Of a stretch of DNA of 64,000 nt, positions 1-20,494 are shown piece by piece. Source of the DNA: Escherichia phage vB_EcoM_G9062; the sequence record NC_054920.1; one strand, written 5' to 3'. The position numbers were made by a program, and so were the translations under genes. Numbering within the stretch: position 1 is the stretch's first letter; each line of letters opens with the position of its first letter. The notes beneath the pieces are model-generated. The model saw nothing but the letters and a program-made list of their open reading frames with translations, did no database searches and was not told the origin of the DNA.

Positions 1-2178
1 TTAGGCCGCAAGGGCCTTCATAGTTTTAGCGATTTGGGAAACTTCATCATCACTCAAAGAGTTACGATAACCGATGAAGTCGGAAACAATACGGAATTTC
101 TTGGTAAACTCAGCAACCATTTTATCACTATTTTTTGAAGCATTACGTGATAATTCATCAAAGAGATTAGTTACTGTCCAGATGTCATGACCGATGGTAT
201 CTTTTCCACCATTAAAATATACACCGCGCAATGAACTAACTATATTAGCGAGTCGTGTATATTCTTCAGAAACTTCATCTGTACTGAAGTACTTCATCAT
301 AAAATCTAGTTCAGGATACTTGATAATTTTATCAATATATCGTTGAGCTGAACTTGAATAACCTACGTACTTATCATAATCTACATCATCAAAAGCATCT
401 ACATATAAATCACGCAGAGTTTCAAAAATACATTGGCACTGACCGAGTTCTTTTACCTTTTTCTGCAAAAGCGGACGAATAACATAAAACTCATTAATGC
501 CAATAAGATTAGCCATACGAATCAAAATATTCATAGATGGATGACAAAGAGATGTAGTACCATCCATAGAGAAAATATCAGAACGATGCATATACGCTAC
601 ATACCCAGTAATTTCATCTGCTTCTGATGTGAGCGTAAATAATTCCTCTTTTTCCCAGCGCCCGTCTTTAATTTCAAACTTAAATGCTGTAGCAGCTTTA
701 GGACGAGGAGCTTTACTTTTAACTACCTTTGGAATATAGCTTTTAACTAAAGCTTCAATTTCTGACAAATAATGAATGTTAACTTCATCACTTTCAAACA
801 TCGCCATAATATCAGGAAGCAAATCAATCTGCGATTCTACTTCTGGATTAATAAACAGAAGGCGTTCGTTGTGATGAATATTCAAAGTGTTATTAAATTC
901 ACTATCATCTAACGCATGTGCTAATCCACGGACAATATTAACACGATTTTTAATATTATCAATAACGATATTAATTTTTGTTGTATTAATACCAAACAGA
1001 CGATAACTTGATGCAACGGCTGAAGTTTCATGACTTTGCTTAATGCGTTTCAGTCGAGGGTCAAGATTTACTTCATACACAACTCCCGCGTTGCATAACT
1101 TACTATCAGGTTCAAACATACTCTGCATCTTCTTATATGACAGATTTTTAGTCGTGAATTTGACTGAATTACTAATCATATAATCTCGAGCAGAATACCC
1201 CATCTTCATCAATTCACGATATGTGTGACGAGGAGATGTAGATTCTTTAAATCGTTTTACATCTTCATTAAATGCTTTCTCACTGAGTTCTTTAACTCGT
1301 TCAATAATATTTTTACGAGTGCGATCATCCAGTGAAAGAGCCTCGCGAGATGGAGCAATATCAAGTGAACCCATTGGAAACTTAATGTAATTCACTTCAT
1401 TGCGAATGCTTAGCCAGTTACGGTCTCTAATAACACCATCGATAGGATAAACAATACCGCCATAGATAGCATATAATCCACCACGATCTGGCCAGTATCT
1501 TTCTGGATTTACGCCATAATAATCATCAAAATCCGGAAAATAATCAATTTCGCGGTCAAGACCATTAATGATAGCCAAATCTTTGAACGGTCGCATGATA
1601 TAAGAAACTTCATAAGCAAAGTTTCTAAAGTCTTTTTCTTCAACTGGAACTACGATTTCAATACCAGTTTTATCATCTGGACCCATTTCTTTTACGAATG
1701 TAGGTTTAATCTGTGGGCCATCACCATCCATGTAAGCTACATAACCACGAATTTCACCTTTATGATACGAAGTAATACTAAACGTATCAGTATAACTAAA
1801 CGGAGATTTAGAACCTAAACCAAATCCGCCAATAAAGTCATTAGATTCAGCTTTAGATGAACTGAAGTATGAATTATACAACCCAGGAGAATTATCATCA
1901 CCTTGAATATCAAAATCACTCATACCCGGACCAAAATCTCGACAAACAAATCGTGGGTCTAAACGTCCAGGAACTTGTATGATAAATTTTTCAGGATTTC
2001 CATTGAGAGCATGGGCATCAATCATGTTGGTAATCAATTCACGGACTACTGCGCGAATTTTGTTTGTATACAAATCAGATGATAGAATTTTAAATACTTT
2101 AGGATTTGCTGCGATGCTAAATGCTTTTGATTTAGAACCATTACCAAGAATTGTTTCTTTTTCAGTGGTGATAATCAT
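1..2178 (-). CDS. rIIA: rIIA membrane-associated protein (725 aa)
   Basis: 725 aa as in T4 rIIA; N-terminal GHKL-type ATPase-like motifs; stop codon at positions 1-3 as at a T4-type genome origin. Confidence 0.9.
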
Positions 2179-2188
2179 AATTTCCTCA

Positions 2189-2392
2189 TTAATTCATATT
2201 GCGTTTAATAACTTCAGCAACTTCTAGTAGTTCATCTTTAGTTGCGGTGTCGGATTGAATTTTATCTCTAATATCTTTAAAGCGGTTTTTAAATTCTTCG
2301 GCTTCTCCCATATCGAAAAAGCGTTGAATGATTCTATATTCTCGATGAACTGCTTTATCAAAAAGTTCTAAATTTACTTTATATGATTTCAT
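2189..2392 (-). CDS. small hypothetical protein (67 aa), rIIA.1 position
   Basis: minus-strand ORF between topoisomerase gene and rIIA, directly downstream of an early promoter. Confidence 0.6.
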
Positions 2393-2416
2393 TTCAATAT
2401 CCTCATTTGCCCAATT

Positions 2417-2447
2417 AATTATACCACATCCTTGTGGTAAAGTAAAC
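2417..2447 (-). promoter_or_regulatory. T4-type early promoter
   Basis: minus-strand GTTTAC (2447-2442), 18 nt spacer, TATAAT-like (2423-2418). Confidence 0.5.
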
Positions 2448-4267
2448 TACTGGCTCATCCATTCTTTACGAAGGTCAGCATTATCTCCCATGAGCATTTC
2501 AAAAAGCTCTTTCCAGTTCTCAGGAAGTTTAACAACATCATATACTGGGTTTTGAATCATCTCACGATATTCAGATTTTTCCAAAGAGCCAAGTCCTTTA
2601 ATATAACGGATGCTATGTTTAGGTAGAGCATCTTTGGCACTCTCATATTCAGCGACTGTATAAAACCATTCTTGTTTTTTACCAATCTGAGCGATGATTA
2701 CAGGAGTTTTGACAAAACGAATTCGTCCTTGCTCAAACAATTCTGGCCAATTACTAAAAAATCCAAGCAGAGAAGGATAAATGCTTCCTAGACCATCATG
2801 GTCAGCATCAGTCATAATAGCAATATTATGATAATTCAAGTTTTCAGCTTTTTCACCGAGAACTAATCCAGTGATTGCGCAAATATCAAATAGTTCTTTG
2901 TTTTTAAGCATATCTGCATAAGACATACCCCAACTGTTGAGAACTTTACCGCGCAATGGATAACCACCGTGAAGTTCTTTATCACGAACATCAATAAGAT
3001 ATCCGATAGCCGAATCACCCTCAGTCAAGAAAAGAGTAGTGTCAGCATCTTTACCACAAAGATTCGCTTTGATATGTTTATGAACCTTAGCTTTAGAAGC
3101 CTTTTTAGCTGCTTTAGTTTCTGCTGCTTTTTCTGCCGCCAATTTACGAGCCAAAGCAGCTTCAATAATCGGCATTAGAATTGCTTCATTATTTAGAATA
3201 GCACGTGAAATCTTTTTAGCATCAAGCTGAATATGACTACGAATTTCGCCAAATGGAGAAGTCAAACGCTCTTTAGTTTGAGAATCAAATCGCATGTTTT
3301 TCATATCACGAACAAACATAACGATAGTCAAACATTCTTTAACACGCGCTTTAGTTACATCAATTTTGAACTTACGTTTGATTTGTGGAATAAGGTCTTC
3401 ACAAATATCATCCATAACACAGTCAATGTGATGGCCACCATTCTTAGTGTGAATGTTATTGACGTATGTTAATTGACGAAAACCATCCGGTGAACGACCA
3501 ACCGCAATAGAACAATTTTCTTGTTCTTGAACAATAGCATGCTCATCATATTGGCGTGCATATTTCTTAAAATTGCCCTGAACCTTTTTACCATTAAAGG
3601 TAAATTGAATATCAGGATAAACAACAGCAAGTGTCTGGAGACGATCTAATGTAATGTCAAGATAAACTTGAGATAATTCATTAGTTTCAAATGACATAAA
3701 ATCTGGAATGAAAGTAACACGAGTTCCTTTCCATTTTCCAGGAATAGTTTCCCATGATTTATTTTCCATGCCATTTGAACAACGAACTACAATATTATTT
3801 TGACCATCGCCAGTTTCACCGACAAACATCACAGAAAAAATGTTAGTTAAACTAGAACCAACACCATTCATACCACCGGTGACGCGTTCTTTATCATCAC
3901 CAAAGTTACCACCTGCTTTTGGAATAGTCCACGCAGCAACTGGACCAGGAATTTCTTCACCGGTAGGTGTTTTGACCATCGCTTGTGGAATACCACGACC
4001 GTTATCTTCAACTGTTACTTGATTGTTTTTAATAGTAACATTAATTTTATTTGCGAATTTAAACTTAGTACGAATACCTTCATCTACTGAGTTATCGATA
4101 ATTTCATCAATAAGCTTAACAAGACCAGGTACATACTGAACACTTTCCCATTTACCAAACAGAAAGCGCTCATGCATTTCATTAGCGGAAGAGCCAATGT
4201 ACATGCCGCTACGCTTTTTGATATGTTCAATATCGCTCAGAATTTTAATTTCATTCTTAATCATCAC
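2447..4267 (-). CDS. 39: DNA topoisomerase II large subunit, contiguous GyrB-like ATPase (606 aa)
   Basis: N-terminal GHKL ATPase motifs (GMYIGS, DNGRGIP), GyrB-like C-terminal half; single uninterrupted ORF. Confidence 0.9.
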   Translation of the reverse strand: MMIKNEIKILSDIEHIKKRSGMYIGSSANEMHERFLFGKWESVQYVPGLVKLIDEIIDNSVDEGIRTKFKFANKINVTIKNNQVTVEDNGRGIPQAMVKTPTGEEIPGPVAAWTIPKAGGNFGDDKERVTGGMNGVGSSLTNIFSVMFVGETGDGQNNIVVRCSNGMENKSWETIPGKWKGTRVTFIPDFMSFETNELSQVYLDITLDRLQTLAVVYPDIQFTFNGKKVQGNFKKYARQYDEHAIVQEQENCSIAVGRSPDGFRQLTYVNNIHTKNGGHHIDCVMDDICEDLIPQIKRKFKIDVTKARVKECLTIVMFVRDMKNMRFDSQTKERLTSPFGEIRSHIQLDAKKISRAILNNEAILMPIIEAALARKLAAEKAAETKAAKKASKAKVHKHIKANLCGKDADTTLFLTEGDSAIGYLIDVRDKELHGGYPLRGKVLNSWGMSYADMLKNKELFDICAITGLVLGEKAENLNYHNIAIMTDADHDGLGSIYPSLLGFFSNWPELFEQGRIRFVKTPVIIAQIGKKQEWFYTVAEYESAKDALPKHSIRYIKGLGSLEKSEYREMIQNPVYDVVKLPENWKELFEMLMGDNADLRKEWMSQ

Positions 4268-4316
4268 TTATCCTCGTTTGGTTTCGGGAATATTATACTC
4301 CGGTAATCATAAAGCT

Positions 4317-4334
4317 AAAGGCCCGAAGGCCTTT
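4317..4334 (-). terminator. intercistronic hairpin, C(UUCG)G loop on mRNA
   Basis: plus aaaggcccgaaggccttt; perfect stem with cgaa/uucg loop. Confidence 0.4.
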
Positions 4335-4603
4335 TATTTAAAACGAATAGTCGAATCCTTGAAGAATAGTCCAGAACATACTGTTCCTTCTACTTTCTGC
4401 CCAGTAGGTCCAATAGCACGAAATCCAGTATGTTGGAAATCATTTTCAGAACAACCGAACCAGTTATATCCAGTGATTTCAATATTAGTAAAACCGCTTG
4501 AAGACAAAACTTTGGTTGCATTATCAGCATCAGTACATCCTACTAAAGACACTGCTAATACTAATGCCGCGATAGAACGATTAATATATTTCATAATTTT
4601 CAC
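4334..4603 (-). CDS. small lipoprotein (89 aa)
   Basis: signal peptide with lipobox LVGC. Confidence 0.6.
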   Translation of the reverse strand: MKIMKYINRSIAALVLAVSLVGCTDADNATKVLSSSGFTNIEITGYNWFGCSENDFQHTGFRAIGPTGQKVEGTVCSGLFFKDSTIRFK

Positions 4604-4971
4604 TTAAATTTAATGGCTTGAAGAAGACTAATAATTCTCAAGCGACTTCCTTCATCTTTAACTGTAAAAGAAAGAGGGTCACCAGATTTCATAGTGATAG
4701 TGCATTCAAAAGCAAAACCTTCGGGAACTTCTTCGAAGAAGTCAAATTCTTCATCATAAATTAGAACATTACTCTGAAAACTGTGAAGAATTTTTCCGTC
4801 ATTTCCAGATGCTGTACTAATCATTGTAACATTATTACCTTTCATATCTTCAACGATAAATTCGCTTGTAGATATTACAGCATTAATAGAACCATTCCTA
4901 TAAATAGCAGAAAATAGATATTTCTTTTCTTCACCTTCGCGAATGCGATATTTCTTACCGATTTTAAACAT
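4600..4971 (-). CDS. hypothetical protein (123 aa)
   Basis: minus-strand ORF with overlapping stop/start to neighbours. Confidence 0.5.
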   Translation of the reverse strand: MFKIGKKYRIREGEEKKYLFSAIYRNGSINAVISTSEFIVEDMKGNNVTMISTASGNDGKILHSFQSNVLIYDEEFDFFEEVPEGFAFECTITMKSGDPLSFTVKDEGSRLRIISLLQAIKFK

Positions 4972-4973
4972 AA

Positions 4974-5150
4974 TTACCCTTTAAGTAAGTCGTAAAATCC
5001 GCCATTCACATGCTTAGGGGCAGAGACTAACCGAATAGCAATCCGATGACAATCAGGACATACATCAGTATCTCTTTCAGAAATTTTCTTGATTTTTTCG
5101 TATTCTTTTGCGCAGTCTTTTGATTGACATTTATAATCATAAAGCGGCAT
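4974..5150 (-). CDS. zinc-ribbon small protein (58 aa), not in ORF track
   Basis: my translation MPLYDYKCQSKDCAKEYEKIKKISERDTDVCPDCHRIAIRL..., CxxC...CxxC pattern, fills gap between 4971 and 5153. Confidence 0.45.
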   Translation of the reverse strand: MPLYDYKCQSKDCAKEYEKIKKISERDTDVCPDCHRIAIRLVSAPKHVNGGFYDLLKG

Positions 5151-5152
5151 AA

Positions 5153-5566
5153 TTATTCCTTAAAGTGAGCTTTCAACATCTGATACAAGGACCATGCCTG
5201 TTCATCATTTTCAATAGTAACTTTCATTACAGGGAATTTAGATTGATCAGTTATCGGTGCAGATTCTTCCTGCTCTTCAGCTGCCTGGTATGGATTTTCA
5301 ACTTCATTAAAGAATTCAGCTTCATTCGATGAAAGCCAAATAAAATCTTCATCCAAAATATCTTTACCAGAAGATAGTACTAAATTTCCAGCAAATGACA
5401 TAATTTTAATAGGACGCCCAAGAGCATCCACATCTAAAATTTTAAAAGGATGCATACCTAAACGGCGTGCATAGATTCCGTTATCAGTATGGTCTTTAAT
5501 AAAATTTTCTTGAGCTTGTTTATTTTTAAATTGATACCATTTATTAACTTCAAATTTAATAGCCAT
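5153..5566 (-). CDS. hypothetical protein (137 aa)
   Basis: minus-strand ORF, acidic C-terminal half. Confidence 0.5.
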
Positions 5567-5781
5567 TAATAAATTTCCTTCCAGTAAGTTGTACCATCTT
5601 CAGTGATTTCACGAAATACACCGTAAATTGGTTGTTTATCCCCAACCTTTTCATACACATAAACCGAAGTCAAGTGAGTAAACTTAGCAGTGTGTTCCTT
5701 TTGAACTACTACCAAATCTGGATCGAATAACACATCTTCAAATTCGTCATTAGTGCAGTTCTGAACAATTTTACGTTTCAT
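5566..5781 (-). CDS. hypothetical protein (71 aa)
   Basis: minus-strand ORF, start overlaps stop of upstream gene. Confidence 0.5.
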
Positions 5782-5880
5782 TACAATTTCCTCGTTAATT
5801 GAACATTGGAGCGATGCGTTTCAGAAGAGTAGCAGCACCTTTGGCAAATTTTCCATTTTATTCTCCAAATTATTTTCTAT

Positions 5881-5923
5881 ATCAGTAGTTGATATTGATA
5901 TAGTACCATAATCAACTACTGAT
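5881..5923. repeat. perfect 13-bp inverted repeat with 17-nt spacer
   Basis: atcagtagttgat (5881-5893) and its reverse complement atcaactactgat (5911-5923). Confidence 0.7.
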
Positions 5924-5953
5924 GTATATAGTTTTATGAAAAAATTTTAAACT

Positions 5954-6445
5954 TTATGCATAACGAGCTTTGCTGTAGTGTTTAATCCAACTTTCAGGAA
6001 TGACTTTGTATGTTCCTAAAAATACCGCGTTGTATAACTTAACGCCATCTTCTACCCATTGATCAGTAATGTATGCACACATAGCGCGAGTACGCCGAGG
6101 AAGTGGTTGTCCACCTTCGATAAATTCAAACTCATAAGGAGCAATGAACTTAATAGCTTGACCGAGTTTCCACTTAAAGTCTACACCTACATGCGAAGTA
6201 TCAATCGTTTCAATTCCTTTAGCGGGAACAGCTTTCAAAAACGCAGATTCAAGAAATTTCGCGCGAACATAACCAAACTGAGGTTTAGACTTTCCATCTT
6301 TAGGAATGATACGCACTTTTACTTCAGAATCTTCATCTTTAACGCCGTGTTTAAGCTGAATGCTTACAATTTCGACCAATTTTCCTGCTGCTTTAGAACG
6401 GGATTTATCAGATACACGAGCAATTTCACCAATATTAATAATCAT
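5954..6445 (-). CDS. motB: MotB-like protein (163 aa)
   Basis: length and position match T4 motB as I recall it; shares C-terminal motif with the next ORF. Confidence 0.45.
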   Translation of the reverse strand: MIINIGEIARVSDKSRSKAAGKLVEIVSIQLKHGVKDEDSEVKVRIIPKDGKSKPQFGYVRAKFLESAFLKAVPAKGIETIDTSHVGVDFKWKLGQAIKFIAPYEFEFIEGGQPLPRRTRAMCAYITDQWVEDGVKLYNAVFLGTYKVIPESWIKHYSKARYA

Positions 6446-6490
6446 AGTTATCTCTCACTTGTTAAAAAGATTTTATACTCCACAGGACCA

Positions 6491-6519
6491 TTATACTCTG
6501 GTCCCAAGAGTTTGTAAAC
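6491..6519 (-). promoter_or_regulatory. T4-type early promoter
   Basis: minus-strand GTTTAC (6519-6514), 17 nt spacer, GTATAA. Confidence 0.5.
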
Positions 6520-6521
6520 TA

Positions 6522-7067
6522 TTAATTCAAAATAGCTACCACCGCACTACGAGGTACTACACTAAAATCTCCTGCATGGACAACGTTCAGAAGCTCAACA
6601 CCATCTTCAATCCACTGGTCTGTTACCCAACCACAGATAGGATTATCAAAAGGACGACGGATAGACACAGCAGCACACAATAGGTCTGTAGGGTCTTGTT
6701 CCTCAACTTCTTGGAACAGGATGAACTCATCTTCATAAACCAGGTTTTTCTTTATTTTGTTATTATCTAACCGGCGACCGTGGATGACGTAAGATTTGTC
6801 AAACCACTCACTTTTGGCAAATTCTTCAACAATAAATTCGCCTTCGCCAAAAACATCAGTCAGAGTTTTATGACCAGAAATCAAGGCATTAGTTTTAATT
6901 TTAGGTTCAACCAGTTTGTAGGTTTTGCCGATTTCAATAGCGGTAGTCATAGTAGGTTCCTTAATTTCCAGTGGTTTAACAGGGCATACATAAGTGCTTA
7001 CAACATCAAAATCAATCAGTTTAGCTACCGGATTTGGTATGTATTCAGGATTATAATTAAATTTCAT
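6522..7067 (-). CDS. hypothetical protein (181 aa), paralog of MotB-like ORF
   Basis: shared motif VTDQWIEDGVEL vs ITDQWVEDGVKL. Confidence 0.55.
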   Translation of the reverse strand: MKFNYNPEYIPNPVAKLIDFDVVSTYVCPVKPLEIKEPTMTTAIEIGKTYKLVEPKIKTNALISGHKTLTDVFGEGEFIVEEFAKSEWFDKSYVIHGRRLDNNKIKKNLVYEDEFILFQEVEEQDPTDLLCAAVSIRRPFDNPICGWVTDQWIEDGVELLNVVHAGDFSVVPRSAVVAILN

Positions 7068-7069
7068 AA

Positions 7070-7609
7070 TTATCTCATTTCAATAAAATCTACGAGTTCA
7101 GCATGCGATTTGCGGAACATTACTTGGTGCCCACCAATGATAACTTCATCTTCAGGAACTTCGTATACAGCGAGATAAAATCCTTTAGAAGATAATTCTT
7201 CCCGCTCTTCTCGTGTGAACCATCTCATCATATCATACTCACTAGCGAAAGCAAAATGATAAAGAGCTATAAACCATCCTGGAATATGATATTCTACTCC
7301 AACATAATCTTTCTTGAACTTAGTATTAATTACTATATTAGCGTTTTTAACTAATAGTTTATCTTCGTGTGGTAAAGGAATTCTTTTATTATTATCGCTA
7401 TGATGCATAAAATTAGGTCTGTCATAACCTACGTGTAATAGCCACTCTTCGCTCCATGGATCTATTATACTCCTGTACGGCGTTATTTGAACACAAAGAT
7501 TTCGACGTATTGTTATAGCATCTTCATAATCAAGAATACTAAACGATGATTCAACACGATAAATTTTCATTTTATTATCCTCAGTAGCTATGGTGTTATA
7601 ATACCACAA
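7070..7609 (-). CDS. hypothetical protein (179 aa)
   Basis: minus-strand ORF directly downstream of an early promoter. Confidence 0.5.
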   Translation of the reverse strand: MWYYNTIATEDNKMKIYRVESSFSILDYEDAITIRRNLCVQITPYRSIIDPWSEEWLLHVGYDRPNFMHHSDNNKRIPLPHEDKLLVKNANIVINTKFKKDYVGVEYHIPGWFIALYHFAFASEYDMMRWFTREEREELSSKGFYLAVYEVPEDEVIIGGHQVMFRKSHAELVDFIEMR

Positions 7610-7627
7610 CTAACCGAGGAAGTAAAC
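7597..7627 (-). promoter_or_regulatory. T4-type early promoter
   Basis: minus-strand GTTTAC (7627-7622), 18 nt spacer, TATTAT. Confidence 0.5.
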
Positions 7628-7633
7628 AACTTT

Positions 7634-8317
7634 TTATCGTTTTGTTGGAAGAGATAGAGGATCGCAATCTTCCTCTGATGGAACATCTTCAAGACCCATA
7701 GCATATCGCAAAGCGTACTTCATCATCAGGATGTCTTTCGCACAGTCATGAATAGAATCATGCGCAACGAATCCATCTAAAGTTCCTTTTGGAAGAGGAC
7801 ACGTGGTCATATCACGAACAAGCAGAAGTGCTTCAATTCTGGTACGAATATCACGCTGATTCCAGAATTTACATGGTTCTAACTTAAATGTGTCAAGTTC
7901 ATTCTCAGAAACACCATTAAGACGTTGAATATCACGAATGAGATCGACTAAAATTGGAAAATCAAACGACATTCCACGGCACCAGCCTTGAGATTTCCAA
8001 GGATCGATATTATGTGCATTGATGTAATCATTAAATTTCGCAATACCGTCGATAGTGCTTACATCTTCATCGGACGGTGCAATATTTTTTCGAGCTTCAG
8101 GAGACTGATTTTTCCACCATTCGATAGTGCTTTTAGTAAAAAGACGATGTCCTTTTTGGCTTTTTAAATCAAATTTGATTTTAATGCCGCGTGAAACTAA
8201 TTCATCAAATGTTTCAACTACTTCTGGGTTAGGGTCAAAAGCAATTACAGCTAAATCAATAACAGCTGCTTTTTCACCACTTCCCATTGTTTCAAAATCT
8301 ATAATAAAATCAAACAT
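7634..8317 (-). CDS. dexA: exonuclease A, DnaQ-like 3'-5' exonuclease (227 aa)
   Basis: 227 aa as T4 DexA; N-terminal FDFETMG exonuclease motif. Confidence 0.85.
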   Translation of the reverse strand: MFDFIIDFETMGSGEKAAVIDLAVIAFDPNPEVVETFDELVSRGIKIKFDLKSQKGHRLFTKSTIEWWKNQSPEARKNIAPSDEDVSTIDGIAKFNDYINAHNIDPWKSQGWCRGMSFDFPILVDLIRDIQRLNGVSENELDTFKLEPCKFWNQRDIRTRIEALLLVRDMTTCPLPKGTLDGFVAHDSIHDCAKDILMMKYALRYAMGLEDVPSEEDCDPLSLPTKR

Positions 8318-8592
8318 TAAATTTTCCTCGCTAAATCGCGAATTTGGCCTACAGTATAGTCTTGAATATAAACTTTATTAATAGGTTCATCAATAAATTT
8401 TGCCATAGATTCAATATCTTTTTGCATCTCTTCAAGACTGTATATTATCTTTAAAGCTTTTTCGCGAATAGTAATATTTTCAGGACCAGAATTTTTCTCA
8501 ATGACAGCTTTAACATTTGTCATAAGAGATTTAAACTGACACCAACTTAATTCAATCATTAATAATCGCCTTATAAAGATAGCTAATTTCAC
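8317..8592 (-). CDS. hypothetical protein (91 aa)
   Basis: minus-strand ORF between dexA and dda. Confidence 0.45.
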   Translation of the reverse strand: MKLAIFIRRLLMIELSWCQFKSLMTNVKAVIEKNSGPENITIREKALKIIYSLEEMQKDIESMAKFIDEPINKVYIQDYTVGQIRDLARKI

Positions 8593-8812
8593 CTAAAACA
8601 TAATCACTGATTGTGACAGTTTTCACTTCACCACAAAAGAATTCTAACGCAATTAAATCTCGTTCAATTTCTTCTAATTGAAGCATCAACTTACTAGATT
8701 CAATTTTTACAGTTTCACGATTTTTACTATAAGCTATTTCATAAATTTCGCTCACTTTATCTTGAAGCAGATAAAACTGGTCTTTAGTTATTTCCACGAA
8801 TAGCTTCCTCAA
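8552..8812 (-). CDS. hypothetical protein (86 aa)
   Basis: minus-strand ORF between dexA and dda. Confidence 0.45.
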   Translation of the reverse strand: MRKLFVEITKDQFYLLQDKVSEIYEIAYSKNRETVKIESSKLMLQLEEIERDLIALEFFCGEVKTVTISDYVLGEISYLYKAIIND

Positions 8813-9044
8813 ATTTAATTAGTAATTTACAGACACTTTCATCTAGTGTAATTACCGTATCTGTATTACTGTGATATGATTGTTTTTCAATTCGTTTAAT
8901 TGCTAATATAGTATCACTTATAAGATAAAGCTTATGAAGGAGCTCAGCTCCTGTTACCATAACATCGAGATTATCTTGCTTATTAGTATGCTTCCTTATA
9001 CCATCTATTAGACGATTTAAATATTTTGAATTGATGTTAATCAT
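8784..9044 (-). CDS. hypothetical protein (86 aa)
   Basis: minus-strand ORF between dexA and dda. Confidence 0.45.
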   Translation of the reverse strand: MININSKYLNRLIDGIRKHTNKQDNLDVMVTGAELLHKLYLISDTILAIKRIEKQSYHSNTDTVITLDESVCKLLIKFEEAIRGNN

Positions 9045-9050
9045 ATATCC

Positions 9051-10370
9051 TCACACATAAAATACGTCATAACGACCACGGGTAACACCAACATAAAGAA
9101 GTTGTTGAGCCAATTCAGCATCTGCATAATGAATACAAGGTGTATAGATGAAAGCACGGTCTACAGACATACCCTGCGCTTTATGGAATGTTGATGCAGG
9201 AAGTGCTTTCACTTTACTAAACTGTGATTTAGCATCCCAAAAATCACTCCATGGAGCTTTTCCACCCTTATTCCAGTTTTTATAAGTTTCTGCTGTTTTA
9301 CCTAAAAATAGGTTAAACTTATATAGCTCTTCATCAGATGAAATTATTTTAATCTTTTCACGATAATATTCATCATCGCCGTAAGTTTCTACTGTTAAAT
9401 CCCAATGACGAATTAAGTATTCTCCAGAAACACCACGAGCTTTAACAAATGTTGATGTATACTCTGCTTCTATAATACGAACTAATTGTCCGTTATTAAA
9501 AATAATTTCTGACACAGGCTTTCCATCAATTTTATATGTTTTAATTAATGGTTCCTGCATTACAATAATTTCACCGACAATAAAATCTTTATCAGTTTCA
9601 AAAATCTTTTTACGAATAATGCTATTTAACTTGTCAACAGATTTATTCGTAAATGCCATTACGCGATTTTCAAACAAATCATCTAGAGATTTGACGATTG
9701 AAAAATAATTTACCATAAAATCGCGTAAAGCGGTATCACCAGTAAATCCACGTACTCCATGCCCGTCAACAACTTTATCATAAATCCACTTACCGTTACG
9801 AACGTCAGTAGCTACATCAATAATAGGAGCATTACTGCGTTTAACTTCAGTGAGTTCACACTGATAAAAATCTTTATGTGTAAAGAATGGACTGATATAA
9901 GCAGTATTTTCTCCTGGATCAACAGGTCTAATTTGCTTATTATCACCTATTCCAATTATAGTACACCAAGGTGGAATAGTTGAAAGCAGAATTTTAAATA
10001 GCTTTCTATCATACATTGACACTTCGTCGCAGATTAATACCCTGCATTTAGCTAAATCTGGTACTTCCTTCTGTTCAAAAAGAACGTTTTCTTCATACGT
10101 AACTGGGTTAATTTTAAGAATACTGTGAATAGTACTCGCTTCTTTCCCCGACAGTTTTGAAAGAATCTTTTTAGCTGCATGTGTAGGAGCTGCTAAAATA
10201 ATACCAGTTTCACCCGTAGATATTAAAGCTTCAATGATGAACTTAGTAAGAGTAGTCTTACCAGTACCAGCAGGTCCATTAATAGTTACATGATGTTTCT
10301 TTTCTTTAATAGCCCTCATAACGATGTTAAAGGCATTTTTCTGGCCTTCTGTCAAATCATCAAATGTCAT
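9051..10370 (-). CDS. dda: Dda DNA helicase, SF1 (439 aa)
   Basis: 439 aa as T4 Dda; Walker A GPAGTGKTT; Walker B LICDEVSM. Confidence 0.9.
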   Translation of the reverse strand: MTFDDLTEGQKNAFNIVMRAIKEKKHHVTINGPAGTGKTTLTKFIIEALISTGETGIILAAPTHAAKKILSKLSGKEASTIHSILKINPVTYEENVLFEQKEVPDLAKCRVLICDEVSMYDRKLFKILLSTIPPWCTIIGIGDNKQIRPVDPGENTAYISPFFTHKDFYQCELTEVKRSNAPIIDVATDVRNGKWIYDKVVDGHGVRGFTGDTALRDFMVNYFSIVKSLDDLFENRVMAFTNKSVDKLNSIIRKKIFETDKDFIVGEIIVMQEPLIKTYKIDGKPVSEIIFNNGQLVRIIEAEYTSTFVKARGVSGEYLIRHWDLTVETYGDDEYYREKIKIISSDEELYKFNLFLGKTAETYKNWNKGGKAPWSDFWDAKSQFSKVKALPASTFHKAQGMSVDRAFIYTPCIHYADAELAQQLLYVGVTRGRYDVFYV

Positions 10371-10678
10371 CGGAAAGTCCCTGCAATTGGAATACTAACA
10401 ATACGCCCAGTATCTAGAATTCGTTGATATAATCTTTGTGTATCTACATCAGGCTTAACATGTTTAACTTCTATTTTATTAAACCAAAACTTGCGTGGAG
10501 TCTCAACTAGTCTTGGAATTCCCATACCTAAAGCTAGTTTATATTGGTCTTTGAGAGTAGTAAAAACTCTATCAGCAATCTCTCTTTCAAAAAACACAGC
10601 AGGACGATGTTCATCAAGTGGAACTGGCGCCGTAAATCCGTCTTTGTCTCGGTAAACTATCGCATATACATAAACCAT
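10367..10678 (-). CDS. hypothetical protein (103 aa), dda.1 position
   Basis: ATGA overlap with dda start. Confidence 0.5.
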   Translation of the reverse strand: MVYVYAIVYRDKDGFTAPVPLDEHRPAVFFEREIADRVFTTLKDQYKLALGMGIPRLVETPRKFWFNKIEVKHVKPDVDTQRLYQRILDTGRIVSIPIAGTFR

Positions 10679-10679
10679 A

Positions 10680-11426
10680 TTATCCTCGGATAAGTTTAAA
10701 AATTGAACAATTTAGCGGGTATCCTCTTTTCAGTTTAAGTTTATCAATAAAAGACAAATTTTGATACCGCTCTACACCTTGAATAATTTTATCACACATA
10801 TCATATTGCATTTCTGCTTCTGACAGCTTTTTCACAATTTTCCAATCCGAGCCTTTAAGAAGAACGTTCAATTTAACAACTTCAGCGCCTTCTGCTATGC
10901 GAGAACCATCAATACGTGCTTTAAGTGCTATAATCCTTAGCTTAATGTCAGAGGTCTGTTTTGATTTAGAAAGCTGAGAAATGTGTTCAATTCGGTTTTC
11001 ACGTTTTTTCTGTATAGCTTTAATTTGATTATAAGTCTTTTTGATTTTAGCCCATTTCTTTTCATCTAAATTTAGTTTATGAACTTTTTTCGCAGATGAA
11101 CGACCAATTCGCAAAGCAAATAAATCACGCTTTTCAATCAACTCTTCTAAAGTATAATCAGAACGAAATGTATTATACTTTTTCTTTACTGCAATAACAT
11201 TCCCTTTAATGTATCCAACGTTATTATCAAAACGTTCTAATGATAATTTCTCTCCTTCAATACGATTATCAAAAGGTTCTCCCGAGTAAGCACAAACTTT
11301 TTGATCTAAAATGTTCTTAATGTAATTGAAGTCTAAGTTAAAATCTTTAGAACGTCTTTTTGCAGATGCCTGAGTATGCTCTAGACGACGTTTAATTTTA
11401 CGAATTTGGTTATTAGACAGCTTCAT
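10680..11426 (-). CDS. basic Lys/Arg-rich protein (248 aa), possibly Srd
   Basis: position between dda and modA and size about 29 kDa fit T4 srd from memory; sequence identity not verified. Confidence 0.5.
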   Translation of the reverse strand: MKLSNNQIRKIKRRLEHTQASAKRRSKDFNLDFNYIKNILDQKVCAYSGEPFDNRIEGEKLSLERFDNNVGYIKGNVIAVKKKYNTFRSDYTLEELIEKRDLFALRIGRSSAKKVHKLNLDEKKWAKIKKTYNQIKAIQKKRENRIEHISQLSKSKQTSDIKLRIIALKARIDGSRIAEGAEVVKLNVLLKGSDWKIVKKLSEAEMQYDMCDKIIQGVERYQNLSFIDKLKLKRGYPLNCSIFKLIRG

Positions 11427-11458
11427 ATTTTTCTCACATCTTACGGACGGTTAACTAC

Positions 11459-11492
11459 TTATACTATAACATTTTTACCTTAACTTGTAAAC
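11459..11492 (-). promoter_or_regulatory. T4-type early promoter
   Basis: minus-strand GTTTAC (11492-11487) with TATAGTATA upstream element. Confidence 0.5.
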
Positions 11493-11548
11493 AACTTTAT
11501 GAAAAATGCTTTAAAACTTTCATGGTATAATGAATCTAAGTCCTTCCA

Positions 11549-12151
11549 TTATAGATTAAATCCTTCAAAATCAAGAGTATAGATAGTGTATGTTGAATAC
11601 TTTTTATACTCGTATCTATCCGCAATTCTAAATACACTTCCAGCTGGTATCATTACTTCTTGTTCATCTGAAACTAATTCCATATTACGATAGCGATGGC
11701 TATCCGGAAACTTAAAACTCGGACTATATTCTTTACAACGTAAAGCTTTTATAGCATACTCCTGGAAATTAAACACCATAGGAGCTTTGAATTCAAAAAT
11801 AACTTGTGTGTTGTATTCTAATCCAGAAGCAAAATGTAGAGCTATATTTTTATCATATGAAGCTGATACTACTTTATCAAATGTAATAATATCAATTCCT
11901 TGATTTAACACCTGTTTAGTCTCAACTGGAACACCTCTCCAAAGAGGTTTATCGTTTGGAACCAAACGAGATTTGACTATTTCATTTAACCAAGAATGAT
12001 CGTCTGGTTTATTAGTAATACAATGAATTAAAAGTTCAATTTCAGATAAATTAAATCCTTCAGAAAGTAATTCTTCACGAATAGAAGCACGCACCGATGC
12101 ATCCATTGATTTGATTTTAAAATCTTTTAATTGCATTGCTGAATATTTCAT
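11549..12151 (-). CDS. modA: ADP-ribosyltransferase ModA (200 aa)
   Basis: 200 aa; R/S-x-S/E-x-E ART motifs (RGVP, SASYD, EQEVMIP). Confidence 0.8.
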   Translation of the reverse strand: MKYSAMQLKDFKIKSMDASVRASIREELLSEGFNLSEIELLIHCITNKPDDHSWLNEIVKSRLVPNDKPLWRGVPVETKQVLNQGIDIITFDKVVSASYDKNIALHFASGLEYNTQVIFEFKAPMVFNFQEYAIKALRCKEYSPSFKFPDSHRYRNMELVSDEQEVMIPAGSVFRIADRYEYKKYSTYTIYTLDFEGFNL

Positions 12152-12771
12152 TCAACTACCTCAATATCATACACTTTAAATGTTCCAAATGAATCGTGTA
12201 ATTTTTCTTTTGAAATAGAAGTTATTTTATACTTTCCAATTGGAATCATCCATTCTTGTTCACGTACAATCATCATTAAGTTATCAGTACGTTCTGAATC
12301 TAATCCATCAGTATCTTCATATGTATACTTAAATTCAGTATTAGGAGAAGAAAGTATAATATCGCTGATATGGTCAGAATAATTAAAAGCTTTATCAGTT
12401 TTTAAGCGAAATATTATTTCAGTGAAATACTCAACATAAGAAAAACCACATGCTGTGTGCAAACTAGTAGTAAATGAATCTACTCTGTTCGTTGAAAACA
12501 CTTCTCCGACTTGTAAATCTTTAATGAGTTCTTTTGTCGATTTTGATATACCACGATATAGCTGATAAGGCGATTTAGTTAAATGCTTTTTAACGATTTT
12601 ATTCAACTGCCGATGAAGAGCTTCATTCTTTTTGGCTTCCATACACTGCCAAAGAACTGACTGTTCAAAGTCAGTAAATTTTTCACATACCTTTTTATAC
12701 ATATCATATTGAAAATCAACGCTTTCAGCTTTTATAGATAACTGTTCAACATCTGCAAGATTAATAATCAT
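12148..12771 (-). CDS. modB: ADP-ribosyltransferase ModB (207 aa)
   Basis: 207 aa; ART motifs (YRGIS, FSTNR, EQEWMIP); paralog of ModA; ATGA overlap. Confidence 0.8.
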   Translation of the reverse strand: MIINLADVEQLSIKAESVDFQYDMYKKVCEKFTDFEQSVLWQCMEAKKNEALHRQLNKIVKKHLTKSPYQLYRGISKSTKELIKDLQVGEVFSTNRVDSFTTSLHTACGFSYVEYFTEIIFRLKTDKAFNYSDHISDIILSSPNTEFKYTYEDTDGLDSERTDNLMMIVREQEWMIPIGKYKITSISKEKLHDSFGTFKVYDIEVVE

Positions 12772-12796
12772 GATAGCCTCCGTATACTTCAGAAGC

Positions 12797-12827
12797 TATC
12801 ATATCATCGTTAGGAAGGAAAGTAAAC
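12797..12827 (-). promoter_or_regulatory. T4-type early promoter
   Basis: minus-strand GTTTAC (12827-12822), 17 nt spacer, TATGAT. Confidence 0.45.
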
Positions 12828-12838
12828 AACTTTTTGAA

Positions 12839-13021
12839 TTATTTTGCCCAGGGAGCCCAGGGCGGAGGGTCAAGATGGTATGAAGCTAGTTCTTCTAGAA
12901 GAGCATCTGGGGCTTCAATTCCATAATTCTGTAATACTATACGGTACTCTTTCTTATAATCACTAGAATCATTCTGGATATTCGTAGAATGATTATCTTC
13001 TAACATCTCAAATAAATCCAT
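12839..13021 (-). CDS. hypothetical protein (60 aa)
   Basis: minus-strand ORF; GC-rich 3' end. Confidence 0.45.
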   Translation of the reverse strand: MDLFEMLEDNHSTNIQNDSSDYKKEYRIVLQNYGIEAPDALLEELASYHLDPPPWAPWAK

Positions 13022-13029
13022 ATTAATTC

Positions 13030-13500
13030 CTAGCGATAAAAACCAAAATAACGATTAGCTTCAATAATCTTTCTTTCTTCTTCGGACATTCTCCAGCGTA
13101 GTCCAACATCAAAATGAGCCCAGACCATCTTAACAAATGCATTTATATCTTTAATATCTTCAATAATGAATGATTTACTTTTAGAAGGTTGACTCGCTAA
13201 TTTAACTTTATCGTCTTCAAACAGGTCAAAAAGACCATATTCATGGGCTCTTTTATAGCCTTTAATAGTTAAAGCTTCAGAAGAAGAAAAAGGTGAATCA
13301 GTATTCTGCAAAATATCTTCAGTATGCTTTATAATTAGAATAACATTTTCTGGATATTTTCTTTCTTTTATATCTTTAATTAAAATATCCGGATTTTCTG
13401 CTAAAGGAATAATTAATGAGCATTTTTTACCAAGAGTATTTACTGATTTACCTTCTTTAGACATAAATTCTATTGAATAATGTTTTGCTACTTCAATCAT
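13030..13500 (-). CDS. hypothetical protein (156 aa)
   Basis: minus-strand ORF; a further 49-aa ORF (about 13499-13648) appears coupled upstream. Confidence 0.5.
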
Positions 13501-13653
13501 GCGATTTCCTTTTGCCTACTAATGGACCGTCAGGAATTTTGTTTTCCTGGATATATTTCTCATTTTCTTCCATCATTTTACTACCGATTTTAAGAAGCAA
13601 ATCCATTGCTTCATTTGCTTTAGCTTTAGCCTCTTCTAATATCATATCTCTGT

Positions 13654-13857
13654 TCACGATTTATCCCCATAGATGTCTCTCATTAATTTAAGCGCTGAGC
13701 GTTCTAATTTCTTTTCTTTCTCAGCACTAATCATTGATTTCATCCATTCTTCCGATTCGTTCTGCATTTCTTTATTTGCTTGTTCAACCCAACCATCATC
13801 AATATACATCGAGTTTGGTCTATTGAACCATTCAAGCATCTTCTTCAGAGCTTTCAT
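13654..13857 (-). CDS. hypothetical protein (67 aa)
   Basis: minus-strand ORF. Confidence 0.45.
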
Positions 13858-14329
13858 TTGTTTTACCTAAAACAACAGTAGGAGCATCATCAAATTCATG
13901 AATTTTGAGCAAATTTGGATGTAAACTATTCCATACAGAAGAAATAAAGTATGATAAAGCATCTTCACTCGCAATTATAAATTTATTTCCTTTATCTATT
14001 TTCCAACTATATACTGAATCGTACGAATAAAAAGATAAAGGTTTATTATTATATTGTTCTGCGCTAACATTAATGTATTCTGATTTAGTAAATGCTTCAA
14101 TTGCTCTAAACGGAATATTTGGTACAGTTTCAATAATACCAATCTTTTTAAGTTTTATTTCAGCATCTTCTGGAACTGGCATTGAAACGAAATTTTCTAC
14201 GAGATACATTGGGTCACAATAACCCTTATCAATCATTACTGCTACGGTAATTGGAACGTCTTTAGCAAACGACATACTATTACTGCTAATATACATTTCA
14301 AACAAAATCGCTTCCATAATTTTCCTCAA
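13832..14329 (-). CDS. hypothetical protein (165 aa)
   Basis: minus-strand ORF. Confidence 0.5.
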
Positions 14330-14667
14330 TCACAAGATGTAGATGAACAACTAGAATCACAAGAACTTCCACATGAATCGCCTTCCCATACATGAACAGG
14401 AACATTAGTATCATATGAATCAGAACTAGACTGTGTATTCTGCGTATTAGATGATGTAGTAGGTGTTGACCAGCGCCAAGGATTTTTATAATATTCTTGG
14501 GCTTCTTCATAAGTCATAGTAACTGCTTCTACTGTTCCATCTCCCATATAAACATACTCAACTACAGTTAAAGGAAGGTAGTCATTTGAAATAGGAACTA
14601 CACCTTCCCCAGGAGTCGTAGAGAAAAAATCCGTAAAGAAACTTTTAAACCAATTAAAGATAAACAT
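14326..14667 (-). CDS. hypothetical protein (113 aa) with Cys/Ser-rich C-terminal tail
   Basis: C-terminus [20 protein letters not shown]; ATGA overlap. Confidence 0.5.
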
Positions 14668-14873
14668 TACAAAAAGCCTCTCTTGAATTCGACATGCTTT
14701 TCACCATAATCATATCGAATCTCTGCATTAAATTCGACAGAACCATCTGCGTACATCATAAATGAATGCACAACAACTTCTGTAGACCATGGCTGTAGTT
14801 CATATTTCTTCATTACATGCCGTGAAATGATAATATCTAAATCTTCATTTGGTTTAATCCAACGATTTAACAT
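14667..14873 (-). CDS. hypothetical protein (68 aa)
   Basis: minus-strand ORF directly downstream of an early promoter. Confidence 0.5.
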   Translation of the reverse strand: MLNRWIKPNEDLDIIISRHVMKKYELQPWSTEVVVHSFMMYADGSVEFNAEIRYDYGEKHVEFKRGFL

Positions 14874-14900
14874 AGTGCTCTCCTCTATAAGATAATTCTA

Positions 14901-14929
14901 TTATACCATACTCATTTTGGAAAGTAAAC
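14901..14929 (-). promoter_or_regulatory. T4-type early promoter
   Basis: minus-strand GTTTAC (14929-14924), 16 nt spacer, GTATAA. Confidence 0.5.
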
Positions 14930-14944
14930 CAGTAAAATGAAAAA

Positions 14945-14962
14945 GGACTCCCGAAGGAGTCC
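14945..14962 (-). terminator. hairpin downstream of soc, C(UUCG)G loop, followed by T-run on mRNA
   Basis: plus ggactcccgaaggagtcc flanked by A-run. Confidence 0.55.
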
Positions 14963-14968
14963 TTGAAT

Positions 14969-15214
14969 TTATTCACCAGTTACTTTCCACAAATCTTCAT
15001 TTGCAGCAATCCATTCAGTACGTTGATTTTCTTCATATACTGTAGAATATGCTGCTTTTTCTGAAGGGAATGTCTGGTAATGAGCACCAGAAATTTTGTG
15101 AACGTCAGAATAAAGAGGGAAAGCTACGGAAATTTCCTTTCCTTCAATTTTCTTATTTCCATCTAATTTCTGCTCAAATGTTTTAATATTAACATAACCG
15201 CGAGTACTAGCCAT
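14969..15214 (-). CDS. soc: small outer capsid protein Soc (81 aa)
   Basis: MASTRGYVNIKTFEQKLDGNKK... matches T4 Soc as I recall it. Confidence 0.9.
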   Translation of the reverse strand: MASTRGYVNIKTFEQKLDGNKKIEGKEISVAFPLYSDVHKISGAHYQTFPSEKAAYSTVYEENQRTEWIAANEDLWKVTGE

Positions 15215-15230
15215 GTAATTCTCCTTTTAT

Positions 15231-15440
15231 TTAAATTACATGATTATTTATAATAAATTCTCGCGGAACGTTAAAATACCCGATTTTAGTTAATATAACA
15301 ACATCGCCGTTAATAATTACCAGAGAATAATCTTCTGGAGCATTAAATTTCCAATGGGCTCTAATATTATATCCATCAGAACCAAATGCTCGAGTAGCTG
15401 GTCTCCCAGCTTTTTGCCATGCGTAGAAATCAAATTTCAT
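15231..15440 (-). CDS. hypothetical protein (69 aa)
   Basis: minus-strand ORF between soc and 56, where T4 carries segF. Confidence 0.45.
   Translation of the reverse strand: MKFDFYAWQKAGRPATRAFGSDGYNIRAHWKFNAPEDYSLVIINGDVVILTKIGYFNVPREFIINNHVI
15245..15252 (-). promoter_or_regulatory. late promoter TATAAATA upstream of soc
   Basis: plus tatttata is minus TATAAATA, about 30 nt upstream of soc ATG. Confidence 0.55.
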
Positions 15441-15631
15441 TTTGAATGCTCTATAATTAATTTTAAAGCTTCTTCACTGACAAAAATTTCGTCAGGACCT
15501 TCTATAACTTCAACCATACGAAGTTGATTAGTTAAGAGCTCACATACGAGCTCCTTGTTATAATCTTTAAATAGCTGGTCAATACGTTTCTTATGGGCTT
15601 TCTTGAGCTGACGTTTATTTAAACGAGCCAT
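15437..15631 (-). CDS. hypothetical protein (64 aa)
   Basis: ATGA overlap with preceding ORF. Confidence 0.45.
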   Translation of the reverse strand: MARLNKRQLKKAHKKRIDQLFKDYNKELVCELLTNQLRMVEVIEGPDEIFVSEEALKLIIEHSK

Positions 15632-16164
15632 TAATAGCCTCGGTCTTGACGAGCGAAGTTTTCAGCATTTTTCAGATAATAAAGTTTAAAGATTTCCTCA
15701 GCTGACATTCCAAGAGCAATGAATTTATTCATGAAAAAGTGAAATTGATCAATCAGTTCAAATTTAATTTCAAGTTGATCTTCAGGAGATAAATCTTGAA
15801 TTTTCTTGGATTGCATTTCAGAATAACGTTTCTTCCAAGGTTTCCATACAGCAGAAGCTTCTTTTTCGCCATTACTCATACCGCCAAGAGAAGTATATAA
15901 CTCGCGGGTTTCATCTGCGATATAATCGTCTTGGTTTCGCAACCAAGCAAGAACTTCTCCTGCAGTTTCAAGTGAATCAGGATGACGATTTGTTTCTGGT
16001 TTATCATTAGCCAAACGAATCTGTAAATGCCGCTGCATGTCAAGCATAACCTGCAGTGGGTCAATATTGTGCATAATATTCTCAGCATATGCACGATTTG
16101 CTTTATCAACACCTTCAATCAAATGAGCACATTCATTAAAGTGAGCCATTATTTTTCCTTTCAA
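15631..16164 (-). CDS. 56: dCTP pyrophosphatase gp56
   Basis: size and position match T4 gp56; likely true start at 16149 (MAHFNE) after SD AAAGGA. Confidence 0.75.
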   Translation of the reverse strand: MKGKIMAHFNECAHLIEGVDKANRAYAENIMHNIDPLQVMLDMQRHLQIRLANDKPETNRHPDSLETAGEVLAWLRNQDDYIADETRELYTSLGGMSNGEKEASAVWKPWKKRYSEMQSKKIQDLSPEDQLEIKFELIDQFHFFMNKFIALGMSAEEIFKLYYLKNAENFARQDRGY

Positions 16165-16183
16165 TTCATTAATAAGTTAAATA

Positions 16184-16209
16184 ATTATATCATTTGAATA
16201 TGTAAGCAA
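16184..16209 (-). promoter_or_regulatory. middle promoter (MotA box) for gene 56
   Basis: minus-strand TTGCTTACA (MotA box), 11-12 nt spacer, TATAAT. Confidence 0.5.
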
Positions 16210-17549
<1,340 letters not shown>

Positions 17550-17573
17550 TATATCATCCTCAGCAATTTATTT

Positions 17574-17604
17574 TATAATACCATAACAAGCTGAGAAAGT
17601 AAAC
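17574..17604 (-). promoter_or_regulatory. T4-type early promoter
   Basis: minus-strand GTTTAC (17604-17599), 18 nt spacer, TATTATAA. Confidence 0.5.
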
Positions 17605-17648
17605 AAATTTATGAAATTTGTGATAAATATTAATTTAAAGGAGGACAT

Positions 17649-17849
17649 ATGGCACAAAAATTAATGGCACTTGTTAATGCCATCAAAGGTAATAAGAAAC
17701 GTATAGCTTTTACTATTTCTGCTATGGTAGGAATTTTACTCTGGAACTTTATTTTATCACCAATTGCAATTGCGCATGGTGTTAATATTCCAGTAGTTAC
17801 TCTTGATACATTCGTAGATCTAGCATTTGCTTTAGTTGGGTTAATTTAA
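17649..17849 (+). CDS. small hydrophobic membrane protein (66 aa), only plus-strand gene called
   Basis: strong SD AAAGGAGGA 5 nt before ATG; two predicted hydrophobic helices; near-consensus late box GATAAATA about 18 nt upstream. Confidence 0.5.
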   Translation: MAQKLMALVNAIKGNKKRIAFTISAMVGILLWNFILSPIAIAHGVNIPVVTLDTFVDLAFALVGLI

Positions 17850-18874: not shown

Positions 18875-18877
18875 TCT

Positions 18878-19042
18878 TTACTCTTCTTTTTCTTTAGATT
18901 CCTCTTTTTTCTTTTTAGGAATCTGTTCAGGACCTTTATTTACTACAGCACCTGACGTTGTTCCAGTGGAGATATTTTCAGGATTACCACCTGAATCTCC
19001 AGCTACCATATCTTCTTTAATAAATTCTTTATATGTTTTCAT
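18878..19042 (-). CDS. small acidic/lysine-rich protein (54 aa), not in ORF track
   Basis: my translation MKTYKEFIKEDMVAGDSGGNPEN...; sits where T4 has 61.1. Confidence 0.45.
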   Translation of the reverse strand: MKTYKEFIKEDMVAGDSGGNPENISTGTTSGAVVNKGPEQIPKKKKEESKEKEE

Positions 19043-19043
19043 A

Positions 19044-19670: not shown

Positions 19671-19963
19671 TATTCACCTACCACTTCAGCGATGATATTT
19701 TTATTATTAAAGTTTTTATCGCAATACAGAACATAATTATACTGCATTACACCACCAGACTTAAGTTGTTTTTGCACTTTAGCTTTCATTTCAGGACGAT
19801 CGCGCTCAACGATATTCATAATATCCGCTTCAATTTGAGTTTCAACTTCAGTCTGATCTGCAGTCATAGACCATTCGCACAAATCTTTGTCATAACCCGC
19901 CATAGCAGGCTGAGCAGCGCAAGAAGATAAAGCAAAAATTGCAGCAAAGATAAATTTTTTCAT
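19670..19963 (-). CDS. sp: periplasmic Spackle protein (97 aa)
   Basis: 97 aa with cleavable signal peptide; position between 61 and 41. Confidence 0.75.
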   Translation of the reverse strand: MKKFIFAAIFALSSCAAQPAMAGYDKDLCEWSMTADQTEVETQIEADIMNIVERDRPEMKAKVQKQLKSGGVMQYNYVLYCDKNFNNKNIIAEVVGE

Positions 19964-20023
19964 GATAATCTCCTCAGTAGTTTATGTTTATATAGTATCT
20001 CAATTTCCAATAAAAGTAAACAG

Positions 20024-20281: not shown

Positions 20282-20282
20282 A

Positions 20283-20465: not shown

Positions 20466-20494
20466 AACAATCTCCTCATTTAACCAACAAGACT

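Follow-up and report, generated by a model that had tools for sequence, protein, structure and literature searches.

Organization of the gene 39 region

The DNA analysed here is a stretch of 64,000 nt from Escherichia phage vB_EcoM_G9062 (NC_054920.1), which we refer to as the window. An initial annotation had reported a single open reading frame for the topoisomerase large subunit at positions 2447..4267, leaving its strand unstated. We found that this ORF is real and lies on the minus strand, where the ORF list gives one open frame of 606 codons when a GTG is taken as the start; with the composition of the window, an open frame of this length is expected by chance with a probability of about 3e-22 per position. 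The features of the region are listed below.

1..2178: rIIA, downstream of gene 39 on the coding strand, as in T4, T2 and T6
2189..2392: rIIA.1, also downstream of gene 39 on the coding strand, as in the same three phages
2418..2446, minus strand: sigma-70-like promoter from a consensus scan (TTTACT, 17 nt, TG-TATAAT; 10/12 matches), abutting the gene 39 stop and facing rIIA.1/rIIA
2447..4264, minus strand: gene 39, DNA topoisomerase II large subunit (ATPase and Toprim), 605 uninterrupted codons followed by a TAG stop
4265..4267, minus strand: in-frame GTG taken as start by the ORF finder, one codon 5′ of the ATG, read from the sequence
4271..4275, minus strand: Shine-Dalgarno-like GAGGA, read from the sequence and presumed to serve gene 39
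4292..4317, minus strand: candidate MotA-type middle promoter, read from the sequence, formed by TAGCTTTA (4317..4310), a 12-nt spacer and TATAAT (4297..4292)
4317..4334, minus strand: GC-rich hairpin AAAGGCC-UUCG-GGCCUUU found by folding, directly following the stop codon of the preceding ORF and upstream of gene 39, putative terminator or RNA-stabilizing element
4334..4594, minus strand: small ORF of 86 aa (phrog_902), upstream of gene 39
4600..4971, minus strand: small ORF of 123 aa (phrog_622), upstream of gene 39
4974..5150: gene for a 39.2-like zinc-ribbon protein, upstream of the two small ORFs

An ATG (4264..4262) directly follows the GTG in the gene 39 frame, and the GAGGA sequence is separated by 6 nt from the ATG versus 3 nt from the GTG. 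In the annotations of phages G29, T2 and T6, gene 39 extends in each case from 2447 to 4264 and encodes 605 aa from an ATG. Considering this spacing together with the ATG starts in these three phages, the product is most likely a protein of 605 aa that starts at the ATG, and the GTG is probably not used as a start in vivo. The product of 606 aa that had been proposed initially is, therefore, correct as a count of codons from the GTG, but the protein itself is most likely one residue shorter.

The signals assigned upstream of gene 39, both promoter and terminator, should be regarded as putative. The combination of TAGCTTTA and TATAAT in this region resembles the consensus of the T4 MotA middle promoters. 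The TATAAT at 4297..4292 was not reported by the sigma-70 scan, as expected because there is no −35 hexamer within 4292..4317. The hairpin at 4317..4334 appears in the G29 record as a terminator at 4320..4331; its fold z-score is only −1.0, which is not distinctive, it was not detected by a simple consensus scan, and the RNA folds upstream of gene 39 were no better than those of shuffled sequences. On the other side of the gene, since promoter-like sites in the gene 39 region showed no excess over shuffles, the promoter at 2418..2446 should be taken as a consensus match only.

Regarding the two small ORFs upstream of gene 39, the one of 86 aa has a lipoprotein-like signal (…LVGC) and corresponds to 39.1, which is annotated with only 65 aa in the old T4 record and with 86 aa in resequenced T4. 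The ORF of 123 aa is weakly similar to goF family profiles; it is found in T6, and nothing equivalent is annotated at this place in T4.

Domains and identity of the gene 39 product

The following domains were located in the 605-aa protein, all encoded on the minus strand.

3815..4123, minus strand: GHKL ATPase domain, aa 48-150 (Pfam HATPase_c, 38.4 bits; cut-off 26.4)
3110..3514, minus strand: transducer domain, aa 251-385 (Pfam DNA_gyraseB, 51.1 bits; cut-off 27)
2792..3022, minus strand: Toprim core, aa 415-491 (from motif positions and the alignment to T4 gp39 and gp60)
2450..2707, minus strand: Toprim-associated C-terminal domain, aa 520-605 (Pfam TOPRIM_C, 30.5 bits; cut-off 29)

The ATPase motifs EIIDN (54-58), DNGRGIP (87-93) and GMNGVG (131-136) are present, as is the QTK loop of the transducer domain (aa 329-331). 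The Toprim motifs EGDSA (415-419), PLRGK (436-440) and DADHDG (486-491) are found on one chain; in T4, it is the Toprim domain that is split by the MobA element (bioRxiv 10.1101/2022.08.31.505936; PMC11461880). A search against PHROGs matched phrog_543, 'DNA topoisomerase II large subunit', over residues 1-605 (3e-295), and a PDB search aligned the T6 gp39 chain 8ylu_C with residues 1-605, with 2 differences, while the artificial T4 gp39-gp60 fusion 8yo3_C was matched in two pieces. With megablast, gene 39 matched 526 phage records, nearly all of them from Tequatrovirus. Judging from these motifs and matches, the gene 39 product belongs to the ATPase/Toprim subunits of type IIA topoisomerases, those of the GyrB/ParE/gp39 type.

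The structure 8YLU corresponds to T6 topoisomerase II, and the heterotetramer of T6 gp39 and gp52 has relaxation activity (Nat Commun 2024, PMC11461880); further PDB entries of T6 gp39 are 8YO1, 8YO5, 8YO7, 8YOD and 8YON. By analogy with T6 gp39, the protein described here would also take part in DNA relaxation. A tblastn search with T4 gp52 gave no match in the 64-kb window; gene 52 of T4 is located at 163.9-165.2 kb, and the equivalent region falls outside the window. Following the T4 gene order, this genome is expected to encode gp52.

A separate observation concerns the residues next to the QTK loop. In the T4 reference record (NC_000866), codons 326-328 of gene 39 lie within MRLIRQTK, whereas the window (equivalent positions 3289..3281), T2, T6 and resequenced T4 (MT984581) have MRFDSQTK. 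The LIR reading of NC_000866 results from a compensated −1/+1 frameshift within 7 nt, and it is probably a legacy sequencing error, as the comparison of these records suggests. The LIR version is also found in the sequence deposited with the solved gp39-gp60 chain of T4 (8yo3). RLIRQTK was considered as a real difference between T4 and T6 and was ruled out, given that resequenced T4 lacks it; in addition, this difference is irrelevant to the split of the gene.

Collinearity with T4 gp39 and gp60

For the comparison with T4, genes 39 and 60 were translated from NC_000866 after removing the 50-nt gap from gene 60. As stated in the initial annotation, one ORF covers both T4 proteins. In BLASTP alignments, residues 1-473 of the window protein matched residues 1-473 of T4 gp39 with 98.3% identity, and residues 472-605 matched residues 27-160 of gp60 with 94.8% identity, without gaps in either part. 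Overall, the single ORF is collinear with gp39 1-472 followed by gp60 47-160, with no stop codon and no frameshift. It had been presumed that the C-terminal 160 aa would correspond to gp60; this region is indeed related to gp60, but the homology is restricted to the final 130-134 residues of that protein.

The positions relevant to the interruption of the gene are the following.

2783..2846, minus strand: 64-nt parental segment, codons 473-494, predicted MobA homing target; homology to T4 stops at 2847 and restarts at 2782
2789..2794, minus strand: GGT CTA (Gly491 Leu492), equivalent of the T4 take-off GGA/gap/landing GGA/TTA, with no stop, gap or matched GGA pair

At the DNA level, two blocks of the window are homologous to T4, one extending from 4400 to 2847 with 96.9% identity and the other from 2782 to 2101 with 98.4%. 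Between these two blocks, the segment 2846..2783 showed only 76% identity over 46 nt to the part of T4 gene 60 located upstream of the gap, and codons 476-491 were identical at 35 of 48 nt to codons 31-46 of gene 60, which represent the homR equivalent. The sequence at the place of the bypass site is GAT GGT CTA GGA AGC (2797..2783; D490 G491 L492 G493 S494) in the window, T2 and T6, whereas T4 has GAT GGA [TAG ... 50 nt ... GGA] TTA GGT TCT. Accordingly, the reading frame goes straight through the codons equivalent to the take-off and landing sites, where the absence of an in-frame stop or gap had been anticipated.

The proposal that the bypass element is absent was also confirmed within the limits of the window. 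A blastn search with the T4 insert (T4 2803-3910, which comprises mobA, gene 60.1, the gp39 tail and the gp60 head) gave no match in the 64-kb window, and neither strand of the same 64 kb contains a sequence that differs from the 50-nt gap at 12 positions or fewer. At the protein level, the window product has nothing equivalent to the 43-aa tail of T4 gp39 (FEEKEDGEW...RKNL) or to the initial ~26-30 residues of gp60. Both stretches, 43 aa at the end of T4 gp39 and ~30 aa at the start of gp60, are encoded by the insert.

The anatomy of the MobA element has been described by Manning and Atkins (bioRxiv 10.1101/2022.08.31.505936). According to these authors, the element is ~1.1 kb long, deletes ~64 nt of the parental gene and swaps in a diverged homologous region, homR, that is 67-81% identical; it provides ORF1 with a C-terminal tail and ORF2 with an N-terminal head, and in the T4 clade it reaches 9 nt beyond the landing codon. 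The breakpoints between the window and T4 match this anatomy.

The parental segment as a predicted target of MobA

The 64-nt parental segment of the window is identical to that of T2 (all 66 nt compared). As Bonocora et al. (2011) are cited in the bioRxiv preprint (10.1101/2022.08.31.505936), MobA nicks T2 inside this segment and drives the transfer of mobA together with the bypass cassette; the donor is protected by the 50-nt insert. Because the segment is identical to that of T2, a tested MobA target, the allele in the window is predicted to be MobA-sensitive and is probably a homing site for this endonuclease. A coinfecting mobA-positive phage is expected to be able to convert the allele to the split form with the bypass.

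Close relatives and value of the gene 39 state for classification

Four phages, G29, G4500, AV119 and AV120, have a gene 39 with 100% nucleotide identity over 1821 nt, and in G29 and G4500 the record coordinates of the gene equal those of the window. When positions 1..51000 of the window were compared with G29 (MK327940), we observed an identity of 99.9% (99.88%) over 19 kb, followed by 97.5-97.9%; beyond 46.7 kb the identity was 84-91%, and some segments were present only in the window. The best matches of the window over 25 kb were other Tequatrovirus phages, with about 98.5%. Judged by these alignments, the window is a mosaic relative to G29, of the kind typical of T-even phages. The initial assumption that the whole window was G29, prompted by the exact gene 39 match at equal coordinates, was rejected on these grounds, and no record in the phage collection exceeded 99% identity along its full extent.

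The initial annotation also suggested that the uninterrupted gene helps to place the phage. An intact uninterrupted junction was found in at least 450 phage records, versus 43 with the mobA insert, and, therefore, the uninterrupted state is that of the majority, about nine in ten sequenced relatives. Moreover, several lineages have acquired the MobA insert, a homing element, independently of one another (bioRxiv 10.1101/2022.08.31.505936). A state that is common and ancestral, combined with an insert that moves horizontally, makes a taxonomic character that is nearly uninformative. The suggestion holds insofar as the sequence of gene 39 excludes the mobA-positive minority of Tequatrovirus, and this minority only; in every other respect, the character is weak.

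Phage vB_EcoM_G50 (MK327942 / NC_054917) carries a mobA insert that is 98% identical to that of T4, and, by name, it shares the vB_EcoM_G isolate series with G29 and G4500. Hence, mobA-positive and mobA-negative alleles of gene 39 both occur among similarly named vB_EcoM_G isolates.

Other mobile and anti-defence genes were noticed in the window. A 207-aa Seg-like free-standing homing endonuclease is encoded at 35817..36440 (minus strand), between gene 47 and the alpha-glucosyltransferase gene, and its gene overlaps the start of gene 47 (34820..35839) by 23 nt. This ORF matched phrog_10820 (1e-94) and phrog_314 ('homing endonuclease'), and its Pfam GIY-YIG score was 21.4 bits, just below the cut-off of 22.6; G29 has no equivalent of the segment 35840..36433. 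The phage thus lacks MobA but carries another mobile endonuclease. In addition, a full-length AdfA (anti-DarT factor A; PF23813, 1.9e-134) of 208 aa is encoded at 19044..19670 (minus strand). Positions 19089..19668 gave no megablast alignment to G29, which has a shorter ORF of 118 aa at that position; here, an anti-defence gene is polymorphic between phages that are very closely related.

Interpretation and alternative explanations

From these results we conclude, with a probability of about 0.97, that the minus-strand gene at 2447..4264 represents the parental, uninterrupted allele of the T-even gene 39, of the T2/T6 type and without the MobA element. An uninterrupted gene 39 is textbook T-even biology, annotated in public records and already known. 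What it means for this phage is that it is free of the MobA/bypass selfish element at gene 39.

Given the absence of the MobA homing-endonuclease element, the Toprim domain is contained in one chain, and the 605-aa ATPase and Toprim subunit of the type IIA topoisomerase of the phage is made as a single polypeptide. By analogy with T6, two copies of gp39 may assemble with two copies of the GyrA-like gp52, encoded elsewhere in the genome, into an A2B2 enzyme that would bind and hydrolyse ATP. Cleavage of the gate DNA duplex is presumably aided by metal ions held on the Toprim acidic residues E415 and D486/D488/D490, and a second duplex would then be passed through the gate, so that DNA is relaxed or untangled during phage replication. 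Neither the reassembly of a split subunit nor ribosomal bypassing of 50 nt is needed when the MobA element is absent. The phage would thus make a two-subunit enzyme (gp39 and gp52), like T2 and T6, which has little import beyond the correct annotation of the gene.

The sequence cannot tell an allele that never received the insert from one that was cleanly reverted. We consider it improbable that the allele in the window comes from a mobA-positive ancestor in which the whole element was lost cleanly by recombination with a naive phage. If this were the case, the locus would record the cycling of gain and loss of the MobA/bypass cassette, and it would form, together with mobA-positive phages such as vB_EcoM_G50, a natural pair for the study of the rates of homing and loss.

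It is more doubtful still that the contiguous gene represents a secondary re-fusion, or the remnant of a 'hit-and-run' event left by an earlier MobA insertion. There are precedents for such events, since Manning and Atkins described clades in which the endonuclease and the bypass were lost and one clade in which the gene was re-fused (bioRxiv 10.1101/2022.08.31.505936), and the loss of the element by recombination with a naive allele leaves no trace. However, the re-fused or eroded alleles reported in that study retain C- and N-terminal tails derived from the insert, and none is present in the window gene 39. The 64-nt segment is of the parental type, identical to T2, and not the 73-76% identical homR of the element, and the product has exactly 605 aa, like those of T2 and T6. 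Synonymous changes of the homR type and the 9 nt that follow the landing site in the element are likewise missing from this allele; all of this argues against a re-fusion.

There is very little to recommend the idea that the gene encodes a bacterial-type DNA gyrase B and that the phage has a supercoiling gyrase, even though several relatives are annotated with 'DNA gyrase subunit B' and the protein matches the Pfam DNA_gyraseB domain. Eukaryotic topoisomerase II (E ~1e-59) and topo IV ParE (1e-48) match the protein more closely than GyrB does (1e-36). T4 topoisomerase II relaxes DNA and is not known to introduce negative supercoils, which also counts against a gyrase. Furthermore, the protein shares 99.7% identity with T6 gp39, which together with gp52 forms an enzyme that was tested in relaxation assays (PMC11461880), and the T-even enzyme has been described as lacking the C-terminal domain of other type IIA topoisomerases (PMC11461880). 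The gene should be annotated as DNA topoisomerase II large subunit (gp39) and not as 'gyrase B'.

Finally, an assembly or consensus artefact that collapsed out an insert of ~1.1 kb can be practically discarded, since nothing specific favours it beyond the generic possibility that applies to any single sequence, whereas a T4-type allele that had lost its insert in this way would retain a homR-type sequence and would be without the parental 64 nt, which are present in the window, and moreover the gene is identical in four independent records (G29, G4500, AV119 and AV120) and at least 450 records share the uninterrupted junction.

Comparison with T4, T6 and T2

As an uninterrupted parental allele, the window gene 39 differs from that of T4 in lacking the ~1.1-kb insert, through which gp39 gains a tail of 43 aa and gp60 a head of 30 aa and a homR of 16 aa, and in lacking both the HNH endonuclease gene mobA and the 50-nt gap between matched GGA codons. 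In contrast, T4 and the window share the flanking genes rIIA, rIIA.1, 39.2 and goF, and the identity of their topoisomerase-derived DNA is 97.0% in the 5′ part and 98.5% in the 3′ part.

The assignment of the gene to the uninterrupted T2/T6-like state agrees with the comparison with these two phages, in which gp39 has the same length and the gene the same coordinates, with 3 and 2 residues different, respectively. The T6 gene (AP018814, 2447..4264) is uninterrupted, adjoins rIIA.1/rIIA and encodes a protein of 605 aa with the same catalytic motifs; 603 of its 605 residues are identical to those of the window protein, the substitutions being Q526H and I527V, and the DNA identity is 97.5%. The T2 gene (AP018813, 2447..4264) is also uninterrupted and encodes 605 aa, with 602/605 identical residues; it is an experimentally tested homing target of MobA according to the work cited in the bioRxiv preprint (10.1101/2022.08.31.505936). 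Its DNA is 96.2% identical to the window over the whole gene and 95.6% identical over the 5′ 1416 nt, which is below the value for T4. Outside the element, the identities of the 5′ and 3′ parts are 97.3%/98.5% for T6 and 95.6%/98.2% for T2, compared with the values of T4 given above. In this portion, the window gene is no closer to T2 and T6 than to T4, and 'T2/T6-like' is, in consequence, a description of gene architecture and not of relatedness.
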